NCBI RefSeq assembly: GCF_988243305.1
Contig: NZ_OZ547136.1
Reading direction: 5' to 3' (one strand)
DNA length: 64,000 bases
The translations under genes and the position numbers were made by a program. Positions 38,941-44,724 of the stretch are shown here, piece by piece. The notes below the pieces were generated by a model. It had not been told where the DNA came from. It did no database searches and saw only the letters and a program-made list of their open reading frames with translations. The stretch's first letter is position 1; each line of letters opens with the position of its first letter.

Positions 38941-39519
38941 ATGGATCTCAATACACTCATCTCACAATATGGTTATGCCGCGCTGGTGATCGGTAGCCTG
39001 GCGGAAGGTGAAACCGTGACTTTGCTGGGAGGCGTTGCGGCACATCAGGGGCTATTAAAGTTCCCGCTGGTGGTACTTTCTGTGGCGCTTGGCGGCATGA
39101 TTGGCGACCAGGTGCTTTATCTGTGCGGGCGGCGGTTTGGCGGCAAGCTGTTACGCCGTTTCTCGAAACATCAGGATAAAATTGAGCGGGCGCAGAAACT
39201 TATCCAACGCCATCCGTATCTGTTTGTCATTGGTACGCGTTTTATGTATGGCTTTAGGGTGATTGGCCCGACGCTGATTGGTGCCAGCCAGCTGCCGCCG
39301 AAAATCTTTCTGCCACTGAATATCCTTGGCGCATTTGCCTGGGCGTTGATTTTTACCACTATCGGTTACGCTGGTGGTCAGGTGATTGCGCCGTGGTTGC
39401 ACAATCTCGACCAGCATTTGAAGCACTGGGTCTGGTTGATTCTGGTCGTGGTTCTGGTGGTAGGCGTGCGCTGGTGGCTGAAACGGCGCGGGAAGAAAAA
39501 GCCGGATAATCAGGCGTAA
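38941..39519 (+). CDS. yohD: DedA-family inner membrane protein (192 aa)
   Basis: ORF with internal ATG start MDLNTLISQYGY...; DedA/SNARE-associated-type membrane protein. Confidence 0.8.
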   Translation: MDLNTLISQYGYAALVIGSLAEGETVTLLGGVAAHQGLLKFPLVVLSVALGGMIGDQVLYLCGRRFGGKLLRRFSKHQDKIERAQKLIQRHPYLFVIGTRFMYGFRVIGPTLIGASQLPPKIFLPLNILGAFAWALIFTTIGYAGGQVIAPWLHNLDQHLKHWVWLILVVVLVVGVRWWLKRRGKKKPDNQA

Positions 39520-39571
39520 AGCAGTTGCCACAGATAAGCATTCACGCCACATCCGGCACCGGGTGTTCCAT

Positions 39572-39608
39572 GCCTGATGCGACGCTGGCGTGTCTTATCT
39601 GGCCTAAC
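39572..39608. repeat. REP element
   Basis: GCCTGATGCGACGCTGGCGTGTCTTATCTGGCCTAAC between convergent yohD and yohF. Confidence 0.7.
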
Positions 39609-39637
39609 CCAATGAAATATCCACGCACCTCACTGCG

Positions 39638-40399
39638 CTATTCTGGGTTGAACTGCGGATTCGCCAACATAAAGCCGCCATCCACTATCAACGACTGCCC
39701 GGTGGTGTAATTTGCGCCCTCTGAGCACAGCCACGCTACCAGGCTGGCAATCTCATGCGTTGCGCCAAAACGCCGCAAGGGAATCGAAGGCTCCGCGCCG
39801 GGCTTCACGTCGCCATCATCCATGCCGTTCATTGGCGTGGCGATCGCCCCAGGTGCAACCGCATTCACCAAAATCTTATGCCTGACCAGCTCCAGCGCCA
39901 TCGCTTTGGTTAACCCGCCGAGCGCATGTTTAGCGGCTGTGTAGGCGCTGGCATCCGGCAACGGCGTATGTTCATGCACCGACGTAATGTTGATGATGCG
40001 ACCACCCTGCCCTTGTTTCACCATCTGGCGGGCAGCAATTTGCGAGCATAAAAATGCACCATCGACATCAACGGTAAAAATCTTGCGCCACTCATCGAAA
40101 GCCATATCAAGAAACGGCGCTTTGGTCATTGCGCCCGCATTATTCACCAGCACATCAATACGCCCCAGCCGTTGAATGAGTTTCTCCAGCGCCAGTGCCC
40201 CTTCTGGTAGATTGCCGAGATCCAGCTGCACGATCTCCGCACGTACGCCGTGGCTAACCACCTCACGCGCGGTATCTTTTGCCCCTTCTTCATCAGAGTG
40301 CCAGGTAATACCAATATCAAACCCCTGCTGCGCCAGTAATAACGCGCACTCTTTGCCGATCCCCGAATCGGAGGCGGTAATAATCGCGACCTGTGCCAT
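39638..40399 (-). CDS. yohF: Short-chain dehydrogenase/reductase (253 aa)
   Basis: SDR cofactor motif near the N-terminus (IITASDSGIGKE); YxxxK (YTAAK) catalytic motif. Confidence 0.85.
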   Translation of the reverse strand: MAQVAIITASDSGIGKECALLLAQQGFDIGITWHSDEEGAKDTAREVVSHGVRAEIVQLDLGNLPEGALALEKLIQRLGRIDVLVNNAGAMTKAPFLDMAFDEWRKIFTVDVDGAFLCSQIAARQMVKQGQGGRIINITSVHEHTPLPDASAYTAAKHALGGLTKAMALELVRHKILVNAVAPGAIATPMNGMDDGDVKPGAEPSIPLRRFGATHEIASLVAWLCSEGANYTTGQSLIVDGGFMLANPQFNPE

Positions 40400-40451
40400 C
40401 GAGTTCTCCACTTAACGCTGAATAAACGTTAAGTATAGAAGGCGCATATCA

Positions 40452-41888
40452 TCAACGTTTGTAACCCCCGCCCAACGCACCAGTGAGTTGAATGGAGGCA
40501 TCCAGCCACTGCCCTTGCAATAACAGGCCATTGGCCCGCTCACGCAGCGCGGGGATTCTGGCTTCGCTGACGCGGGAACCCGCAATGATGCCCGCGTTAA
40601 AGCGCGCCTGCGCAAGACCTACTACACGCAAGGCATCGCGCTCAATTTGCGCCTGATGCTGGTTTTTCTCCGCCAGTGTCTGAACCTGACTAGCTGCCCG
40701 CGCCACGTCATTCACCGCTTCAACCACCGCTTTGTTGTAGCTGGCGATAGACAAGTTGCTTTCGGCTTTTGCGATATCGAGGTTGGCGTTAAGACGGCCA
40801 CTATCGAAAATGGGTAGCGTCAGGCCTGCCGTAACGCCCATTTGCTGCGCGGAATGACGGAACAGATCGCTTAAGTGCAACGCATCCTGTTGCAGGAAGG
40901 CCATCAGGTTGATGTCAGGATAAAATGCCGCTTTTGCCGCATCAATAGTGCTTAACGATGACTCAACGTACCAGTGCGCCGCCTGCAAATCTGCCCGCCG
41001 GGCCAGTAAGGAGTACCCCAGTTCATCAGGAAGCTGGCTTGCCACTTTCGGCAACGCGACCGGATTAAGCTTCAATGCCTTTGTCTGGTGATTTGTAAGT
41101 GCGCTTAACCGTGCCTCAATAATTTTCATTTTCCCCGCGACATCGTTGAGCTGCTGCCGGGTTTTGCTGGCATTAATATCGGTTTCCACACCTTCAACTG
41201 AAGAAGTAATCCCGTTCTGATATAGCTGGCGATCGGTGGCGATAATGGTGTTCTGCTCTTTTTCGATTTGCTGTAAGACAGTGTTTAACGCCGCCTGGGT
41301 TTGCCACTCCCAGTACAGGCGGGCTACGCTGCCAGCCAGCAATTGGCGGGTTTGCTCGCGTTCCGCCGCTCGTGCTTTAACCGTACCCAGGCGAGCAGTA
41401 ACCTCCGCCCGATTCTTTCCCCAGATATCGAGATGCCAGCCCGCCGTTAAGCCAAAAGTACCGTTGGTGTACCACGGACCGGTCGTACCTGCGGCAGGAT
41501 CGTTCAGAGCAAACGGCCCCATTAACCCTTCTGCCGACATTTTTTGCCGCTCCATATCCGCAGAAAAGTCGATCTGCGGACCATCCTGAGTGGCAACTGC
41601 CTTCGCCTGGGCTTCAGCCAGCTGAATGCGCTGTTCAGCCACCTGCATATCCGGTGCGTTCTGTAGTGCATTGTTAATTAAGGAAGTGAGCTGATTATCG
41701 TGATACTTCAGCCACCATTGGCTGTCTGGCCAACCATTTTTCAGCGCCGTGGGTAATGCGGTGTCAACTTGCACAGCGGGCGTTTGCTGGCTTAACGCCT
41801 GGCGGGTTTCATGCATAGGCGCACACCCGGCCAGCATCAGTAACAGCGGAAAACAGGCGATGGCGGGATAAAAGGAATCACGATTCAT
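40452..41888 (-). CDS. mdtQ: Outer-membrane efflux lipoprotein (TolC/OprM-like), intact (about 478 aa)
   Basis: Uninterrupted ORF with lipoprotein signal (LLLMLAGCAP); start codon choice uncertain (41888 vs 41978). Confidence 0.7.
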   Translation of the reverse strand: MNRDSFYPAIACFPLLLMLAGCAPMHETRQALSQQTPAVQVDTALPTALKNGWPDSQWWLKYHDNQLTSLINNALQNAPDMQVAEQRIQLAEAQAKAVATQDGPQIDFSADMERQKMSAEGLMGPFALNDPAAGTTGPWYTNGTFGLTAGWHLDIWGKNRAEVTARLGTVKARAAEREQTRQLLAGSVARLYWEWQTQAALNTVLQQIEKEQNTIIATDRQLYQNGITSSVEGVETDINASKTRQQLNDVAGKMKIIEARLSALTNHQTKALKLNPVALPKVASQLPDELGYSLLARRADLQAAHWYVESSLSTIDAAKAAFYPDINLMAFLQQDALHLSDLFRHSAQQMGVTAGLTLPIFDSGRLNANLDIAKAESNLSIASYNKAVVEAVNDVARAASQVQTLAEKNQHQAQIERDALRVVGLAQARFNAGIIAGSRVSEARIPALRERANGLLLQGQWLDASIQLTGALGGGYKR

Positions 41889-42111
41889 GGGGGAATAATC
41901 AGGTAAGAAAAGGTGCGCGGAGATTACCGTGTGTTGCGATATATTTTTTAGTTTCGCGTGGCAAAACATCAGTGGCAATAATATGACATATCCAGAAAAA
42001 TATACACTAAGTGAATGATATCTTCCGATTTATCTTAATCGTTTATGAATAACGGCAAAGGGCTTCGTTTTTTCCTATACTTATTCAGCACTCACAAATA
42101 AAGGAACGCCA

Positions 42112-42195
42112 ATGAAAATTATACTCTGGGCTGTATTGATTATTTTCCTGATTGGGCTACTGGTGGTGACTGGCGTATTTAAGATGATATTTTAA
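42112..42195 (+). CDS. yohP: Small membrane protein (27 aa): MKIILWAVLIIFLIGLLVVTGVFKMIF
   Basis: 28-codon ORF with AAGGAA RBS; single TM helix; below ORF-track threshold. Confidence 0.7.
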   Translation: MKIILWAVLIIFLIGLLVVTGVFKMIF

Positions 42196-42447
42196 AATTA
42201 ATTAATGTCATCAGATCCGAAAATAACGAGAATATTTCAGTCTCTCATCCTGTTGCGCTCCTGTCATGTGCATTGCTTCATATAATCACTGGCGCAAGGA
42301 GCGCGCAGGGGGCGACCAATCGCCGCTGCGCGGTGCCCTCGGCTTATCCCTTACGGCTACCGGGTCGGCGATTTTGACGCCACCAAACAACCGTGCGGCC
42401 TATTGATAAAGAGCTAACACATTGTCAAAAAACATCACTATGGTTTT

Positions 42448-43395
42448 TTAGAGTTTCTCGATATCAATTGCCTGAATAGCCCTTGCAATATCAGGGGAAT
42501 TATTCAACACCCGAACATGCTGAAATAATTCCGTTGCTTCATCGTATTCTTTACGCAAATAACTCAACCACTGTTTAATCCGCGCAACGTGATATAACCC
42601 GGTATCGCCCTGCTTTTCCAGACGGGTATATTTTTGCAGCAAAGCAACTACCTCCGGCCACGGCATTCGCGGTTCGTTATATTTTACCACCCGGCTCAGG
42701 TTGGGAATATTGAGCGCCCCGCGACCAATCATCACTGCGTCGCAGCCGCTGATCGCCATGCATTGTTGCGCGCTCTGCCAGTCCCAGATTTCACCGTTGG
42801 CAATCACCGGAATATTCAGCCGCTGGCGAATCTCGCCAATCGCCTGCCAGTCAATATGCTCCGCGCGGTAACCCTGCTCTTTTGTCCGCCCATGCACCAC
42901 CAGCTCCGTAGCGCCAGCCTGTTGAACCGCATCGGCGATTTCAAATTTCTTCTCACCGCTGTCCCAGCCCAGACGCACTTTTACGCTGACGGGCAAATGC
43001 GCTGGTACAGCTTCACGCATCGCTTTTGCACCCTGGTAGATGAGTTCAGGATCTTTGAGTAACGTCGCGCCGCCGCCGCTACCGTTAACCGTTTTCGACG
43101 GGCAGCCGCAATTGAGATCCACGCCCCAGGAACCTAACTCCACCGCACGGGCGGCGTTCTCTGCCAGCCATTGTGGGAACTGACCTAACAACTGCACGCG
43201 CACCAGCGTACCAGATGGTGTCCGGCTGGCGTTTTGTAGCTCAGGGCAAATGCGATGAAAGACTTTTACCGGCAGCAGTTGATCCACCACGCGGACAAAC
43301 TCGGTGATGCACAGATCGTAGTCGTTAACTTCGGTCAGCAATTCACGCACCAGAGAGTCAAGCACTCCCTCCATCGGTGCCAGTAACACACGCAT
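42448..43395 (-). CDS. dusC: tRNA-dihydrouridine(16) synthase (315 aa)
   Basis: Dus-family ORF ([13 protein letters not shown]..., TIM-barrel flavoenzyme). Confidence 0.9.
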
Positions 43396-43597
43396 ATCAT
43401 CACCCGCAAAAAAATGAGGCGCTATGTTAGCGCCTATGGTCAGCGGATTAAAGGTCTGCAAAGAGGGATTGCTGCAAACTGCAATCCCTCTCTATGCTTG
43501 ATGTATGCCTGAGTTCGCTGCTCATTGCGTAATACCGGGGAGCGAAAAAATAAGCGCTGATTTCTTAATGTGATCGGTAGCACGTTTTACGAATTAA

Positions 43598-44724
<1,127 letters not shown>

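Follow-up and report, generated by a model that had tools for sequence, protein, structure and literature searches.

The question raised by this locus is whether the uninterrupted frame of the efflux-channel gene mdtQ in the window (the whole stretch of 64,000 nucleotides that was analysed) is a peculiarity of one genome or the normal state of the gene in E. coli, at which codon its translation begins, and whether it is linked to the 27-codon gene yohP that lies divergently beside it. The locus almost certainly represents the normal wild-type E. coli yohF-mdtQ / yohP-dusC neighbourhood. Both genes are well catalogued and everything at the locus is already known; beyond a few conserved non-coding blocks, the window offers no new handle on the pump, the substrates or the regulation of MdtQ.

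The mdtQ reading frame and the K-12 lesion

The mdtQ coding sequence (formerly yohG) occupies 40452..41888 on the minus strand and comprises 478 codons followed by a TGA stop at 40452-40454. The original prediction of an uninterrupted efflux-channel ORF is confirmed by the ORF list and the sequence, in which the minus-strand frame is stop-free from TTG 41978 to 40452; the final 478 codons of this frame, starting with ATG 41888, constitute intact mdtQ. The product matches the NCBIfam equivalog NF008524 with 1020.3 bits (cut-off 650) over the full model (1-478 of 478) and TIGR01845 NodT with 272.4 bits (cut-off 210), and it contains two tandem repeats of PF02321 OEP (E=2.3e-30). Both gene names had been given correctly, mdtQ by its match to NF008524 and yohP by its matches to NF011345 and PF25659, all of them above the respective cut-offs. 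A protein of 478 aa identical to that of the window is already in the databases under the name E. coli MdtQ, on 106 contigs, where the RefSeq name for the non-K-12 protein is 'multidrug resistance outer membrane protein MdtQ' (NF008524). The MdtQ proteins of Salmonella and Citrobacter, which belong to the same family, display no substantive difference from it.

The K-12 MG1655 gene (b2139, formerly yohG/yohH) resides at the same locus between the same neighbours and shares 98% nucleotide identity with the window copy. Global alignment of the two revealed 28 substitutions and one 1-nt indel, which is the sole frame-breaking lesion of the K-12 gene and consists of the loss of one A in the A5 run of codon 50 (41737..41741, minus strand, T5 on the plus strand; gene positions 148-152). 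In K-12 the run is A4 and the shifted frame ends after 69 codons, whereas the window copy retains A5 and is intact. The original statement that mdtQ is a pseudogene in K-12 was accurate, as the A4 state at codon 50 is matched by RefSeq and the MG1655 reference, in which the gene, 1436 nt long, is flagged as 'frameshifted' or as a pseudogene. Once the K-12 frame is repaired, 5 of the 478 residues differ from the window protein.

Among 5426 complete E. coli genomes, 5423 contain the 1.9-kb region of mdtQ and yohP. When the lesion site was scored with an exact 41-mer centred on the run, i.e., as a single site, the A5 allele was found in 4940 of the 5426 genomes (91%) and the A4 allele in 355, while the ~130 remaining genomes carry SNPs nearby or have lost the region. 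Of the 40 A4 genomes that were listed, most bear the names of K-12 or laboratory strains, among them MG1655, DH5alpha, C600, J53, and strains of NEB and Takara. In view of these counts, intact mdtQ is the normal state in E. coli and no peculiarity of the window genome, and the pseudogene label attached to the K-12 gene is a peculiarity of laboratory strains. A 2025 review likewise places mdtQ in the E. coli core genome, conserved despite its pseudogene label (PMC11762307). It follows from the K-12 lesion that the function of MdtQ is not studiable in K-12 and that a strain with an intact gene is required.

Comparison of the window gene with the frame-repaired K-12 gene gave an omega of 0.064, and comparison with the gene for Salmonella MdtQ (478 aa), which aligns gap-free at 81.6% identity, gave 0.071. 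Such low values against both K-12 and Salmonella indicate that purifying selection on mdtQ is strong and that the lesion in K-12 arose recently.

The A5 run was also considered as a site of phase variation; this was rejected, since the listed A4 genomes are mostly K-12 or laboratory strains and a run of five is too short for efficient slippage. The gene does decay in some lineages. In CFSAN061769 (L005 2874-3853), the IS5-like element ISKpn26 stands in place of both mdtQ and yohP, and a 435-aa variant of MdtQ (proteins P0014 and P0005), found on 43 contigs, has an in-frame deletion of 43 residues. The allele in the window is itself a minority one, as only 5 of the 5423 matching complete genomes reach 99% identity across the 1.9-kb mdtQ-yohP query. 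Over the 22 kb at 30000-52000, no complete RefSeq E. coli genome is at least 99% identical, and the matches listed lie between 98.1 and 98.6%; either the source lineage is sparsely represented among complete genomes or this segment is mosaic.

Start codon, lipoprotein signal and proposed role of MdtQ

The start of mdtQ had been described as ambiguous, ATG 41888 lacking a clear ribosome-binding site and TTG 41978 being the alternative. The first half of that statement holds, as no Shine-Dalgarno (SD)-like motif was found within 20 nt of ATG 41888; the ambiguity, however, resolves in favour of ATG 41888 through the lipobox, the orthologues and the stops upstream. Translation from this ATG yields a predicted lipoprotein signal peptide, MNRDSFYPAIACFPLLLMLAGC (41823..41888, minus strand), which carries R3 in its n-region, the signal core CFPLLLMLAGC and the lipobox L-A-G-C, with Cys22 as the predicted lipidated residue and Ala at the +2 position. 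The PROSITE PS51257-type pattern is satisfied only when translation begins here.

Translation from TTG 41978 (41976..41978, minus strand; 508 aa) or from the in-frame ATG 41969, which would give a protein of ~505-508 aa with an N-terminal extension, is scarcely credible. This reading draws on the frame being open from 41978 in E. coli, on the missing SD of ATG 41888 and on several GenBank E. coli entries that annotate a 508-aa MdtQ. However, it would move the lipobox Cys to residue 52, i.e., beyond the range of a lipoprotein signal, and the upstream codons fare no better for ribosome binding, since an SD is missing at 41978 and 41969 too, with merely a weak 'GGA' 12 nt upstream of the former. 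The 30-codon extension is missing from the orthologues in Salmonella, Citrobacter and E. albertii, which have 478-479 aa and align with 94% of the 508-aa query; in these three genera in-frame stops lie 6-20 codons 5' of the ATG. The DNA alignment across genera additionally displays a 2-nt indel immediately 5' of the mdtQ ATG, and the position of TTG 41978 reads TTT in E. albertii. Moreover, the NF008524 alignment covers residues 31-508 of the 508-aa ORF, its model starting at M31.

The other genera were needed for this comparison since the upstream region is ~99% identical among E. coli strains, which renders a comparison within the species uninformative for the start. They also bear on the missing SD, which is absent in E. 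coli, E. albertii, Salmonella and Citrobacter; being common to all four genera, this absence characterises the gene and does not count against ATG 41888. Deposited annotation is inconsistent, with MdtQ entered at both 478 aa and 508 aa and some GenBank entries giving the longer form, and this inconsistency is settled by the assignment of the start to ATG 41888.

The nearest solved structures to MdtQ are all outer-membrane factors, namely VceC, OprM, SilC, CusC and CmeC, with matches at E=7e-40 for VceC (1yc9) and at E of about 1e-21 to 1e-23 for OprM and CusC; a model of MdtQ itself has been published. The MdtP family NF007390 matches MdtQ at E=2e-105, which falls under that family's cut-off. 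The OEP/NodT architecture is common to MdtQ, MdtP, CusC, OprM, VceC and TolC. MdtP, CusC and OprM are lipoproteins, which MdtQ resembles by its signal, unlike TolC, which is not a lipoprotein.

Translated from ATG 41888, MdtQ is an outer-membrane-factor lipoprotein of the NodT family. By analogy with this family, it would be exported by Sec and lipidated on Cys22, and the Lol system would sort it to the outer membrane on account of Ala, not Asp, at the +2 position. There it is expected to trimerise into a TolC-like structure composed of a β-barrel and an α-helical tunnel, which should dock with a pump of the inner membrane and an adaptor of the periplasm, both encoded elsewhere, and act as their exit duct. 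No pump or adaptor gene adjoins mdtQ in the window, and in comparison with the outer-membrane factors of tripartite systems MdtQ is thus an orphan.

The 2025 review gives the function, partners and promoter of MdtQ as unknown, the promoter lacking experimental confirmation (PMC11762307). The only phenotypes that it reports for mdtQ null mutants concern puromycin, acriflavine and tetraphenylarsonium and are attributed to 'E. coli' with the strain unnamed (PMC11762307, its ref. 48). If K-12 was used, these phenotypes are hard to reconcile with the frameshift at codon 50; one possible explanation is that the mutations had polar consequences for yohF, which follows 52 nt downstream in the same direction.

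yohP and its relation to mdtQ

The yohP coding sequence occupies 42112..42195 on the plus strand (27 codons followed by TAA) and encodes the single-helix inner-membrane protein MKIILWAVLIIFLIGLLVVTGVFKMIF, in which residues 3-23 form a single hydrophobic helix with a mean Kyte-Doolittle hydropathy of 3.0. Its product matches NF011345 with 67.3 bits (cut-off 58) and Pfam PF25659 with 50.6 bits (cut-off 27), in each case over residues 1-27. The ORF is present where it had been predicted and is identical to K-12 yohP, with 0 nt and hence 0 residue differences, and it has a good ribosome-binding site, the SD core AGGA at 42102..42105 (plus strand) lying 6 nt 5' of the ATG.

Preceding yohP, the sequence TTTCCTATACTT contains CTATACT (42075..42081, plus strand), i.e., TATACT with a C at -13, which, in view of the sigma-S consensus, we take to be a candidate sigma-S-type -10 element. 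The motif TTTCCTATACT is located at a similar distance from the yohP ATG in E. coli, Salmonella and Citrobacter, although its flanks diverge, and a conserved element of this type probably drives yohP. This reading is consistent with the published RpoS dependence and stationary-phase induction of YohP. SPA-tagged YohP expressed from the E. coli chromosome under its native promoter is induced in stationary phase and by starvation (PMC12719787), and 3xFlag-tagged YohP in Salmonella can hardly be detected when rpoS is mutated (PMC5437024). The detection of tagged YohP in these experiments, from the K-12 gene to which the window copy is identical (PMC12719787) and from its Salmonella orthologue (PMC5437024), also answers the question, posed by the original prediction, of whether the small ORF is translated at all. 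In further published experiments, YohP has served as a model substrate for SRP-dependent post-translational insertion into the inner membrane, and it has been found to dimerise, depolarise the membrane, and trigger the stringent response, nucleoid condensation and 'metabolic silencing' in stationary phase. yohP is thus a verified and characterised gene.

The two genes are divergent, with 223 bp between their start codons. The original prediction correctly placed yohP upstream of mdtQ on the opposite strand, although its heading, in which mdtQ is 'followed by' the small gene, was loosely worded. On the other side of mdtQ, yohF, which encodes an SDR oxidoreductase, lies 52 nt 3' on the same strand, and dusC converges on yohP. 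K-12, two further E. coli strains and Salmonella share with the window the placement of mdtQ between yohF/yohD and yohP/dusC, the Salmonella order being dusC-yohP-mdtQ-yohF-yohD as in the window. In Citrobacter, which has no yohF, a methyltransferase gene separates yohP from its neighbour mdtQ. A simple pattern search did not find yohP in E. albertii, though mdtQ is present there.

We treat mdtQ and yohP as neighbours rather than partners, since they are no longer adjacent in Citrobacter, the pattern search in E. albertii recovered no yohP, and in K-12 a working yohP stands beside a dead mdtQ. The same observations render it highly improbable that the two form a functional pair that is co-regulated from the shared spacer, for instance with YohP acting on an efflux assembly in the way AcrZ acts on AcrB. 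Such a pairing would fit their adjacent and divergent arrangement in E. coli and Salmonella, and PMC12719787 cites cases in which a small membrane protein modulates a pump. However, the K-12 yohP is fully functional and stress-induced although its neighbour is dead, and the published YohP phenotypes all stem from K-12, i.e., from cells without MdtQ; in addition, the two proteins are assigned to different membranes, YohP to the inner and MdtQ to the outer.

The control region and flanking elements

The divergent control region of mdtQ and yohP spans 223 bp (41889..42111) and harbours conserved blocks. In an alignment of E. coli, E. albertii, Salmonella and Citrobacter, two of them are nearly invariant: a non-coding block at 41944-41970, which reads GATGT-TTGCCACGCG-AACTAAAAAAT in the mdtQ sense, and a pyrimidine-rich leader block at 41900-41927, which reads GTAATCTC-GCGCACCTTTTCTTACCTG in the same sense. 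To judge from this alignment, the two blocks may be regulator-binding or leader elements. A scan of 41700-42600 for consensus promoters and terminators returned fewer matches than shuffled sequence, and none of them was usefully placed for mdtQ or yohP. No recognisable sigma-70 promoter was found for mdtQ, which together with the missing SD counts against the reading of the locus as that of a wild-type gene, as does the lack of a pump or adaptor gene next to it. A leaderless mdtQ mRNA was also considered and rejected, since GATTAT at -12 to -7 of the ATG is weak and not kept in the other genera.

The features of the 5' region may be read in two other ways. An intact mdtQ that is effectively silent or dispensable, i.e., an orphan channel with poor expression that is in the course of gradual loss, would account for the missing SD, for the failure to identify a promoter and for the lack of an adjoining pump, as well as for the loss of the gene in K-12, the replacement of mdtQ-yohP by an IS5-like element in some strains and the in-frame 43-aa deletion in one lineage (435 aa, 43 contigs). 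We regard this as unlikely, given that purifying selection is strong both within E. coli and against Salmonella (omega ~0.07), that orthologues of 478-479 aa are retained in Salmonella, Citrobacter and E. albertii, and that the 5' region is conserved across genera. Conversely, the absence of an SD in four genera, combined with the conserved pyrimidine-rich leader and the conserved upstream block, could point to an undescribed transcriptional or translational control of mdtQ, perhaps shared with the sigma-S-driven yohP and with yohF, such that MdtQ would be a stress-induced alternative to TolC. This proposal is given little chance; if it were true, a stress-induced MdtQ would have been missed by K-12-based research since the gene is dead there. 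The normal wild-type neighbourhood stays the preferred reading of the locus.

Several further elements flank the two genes. Within the 52-nt gap between mdtQ and yohF, the segment 40411-40438 (minus strand) contains TTCTATACTTAA, a near-consensus sigma-S-type -10 sequence that is conserved in Salmonella, where it reads TTCCTATACTTAG; yohF thus has a conserved CTATACTT motif of its own. A 7-bp hairpin, CTTAACG-N9-CGTTAAG, overlaps the candidate yohF -10 element just before the GGAG SD, the yohF ATG being at 40399. From these motifs, yohF, like its counterpart yohP at the opposite flank of mdtQ, may have a stationary-phase promoter of its own.

The spacer between yohP and dusC contains, at 42279-42394, a shortened copy of TRIP1c, a known low-copy repeat of E. 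coli. The spacer measures 252 nt in the window versus 372 nt in K-12, and relative to K-12 the window copy of TRIP1c has two internal deletions of ~41 and ~81 nt, the first of which is flanked by the direct repeat AATCGCCGC. In about a third of genomes (e.g., L004), TRIP1c is inverted and has other flanks. The repeat, its three K-12 copies and both of its orientations have already been described (PMC10888264), in a paper from which the word 'Rfam' is absent. Full-length copies of TRIP1c (L003 2230-2381, minus strand, and L004 3370-3509, plus strand) match the Rfam RNA motif TwoAYGGAY with 30.9 and 28.4 bits, respectively, below the gathering score of 43; this TwoAYGGAY-like match has a perfect ACAUGGAUGU loop in the first hairpin, and its second loop is degenerate. 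The deletions in the window copy take out exactly the TwoAYGGAY-like core, and the match is absent from it.

When 39400-43600 was scanned against Rfam with a permissive E-value, no match attained a gathering score. An AgvB-like match at 42218-42278 (22.9 bits vs 56), which is also present in K-12, was treated as a chance hit. A REP-type element at 39500-39604, between yohD and yohF, matches Rfam naRNA4 with 49.3 bits (gathering score 59.5), and the copy of this element in strain AVS0756 attains 59.3 bits.
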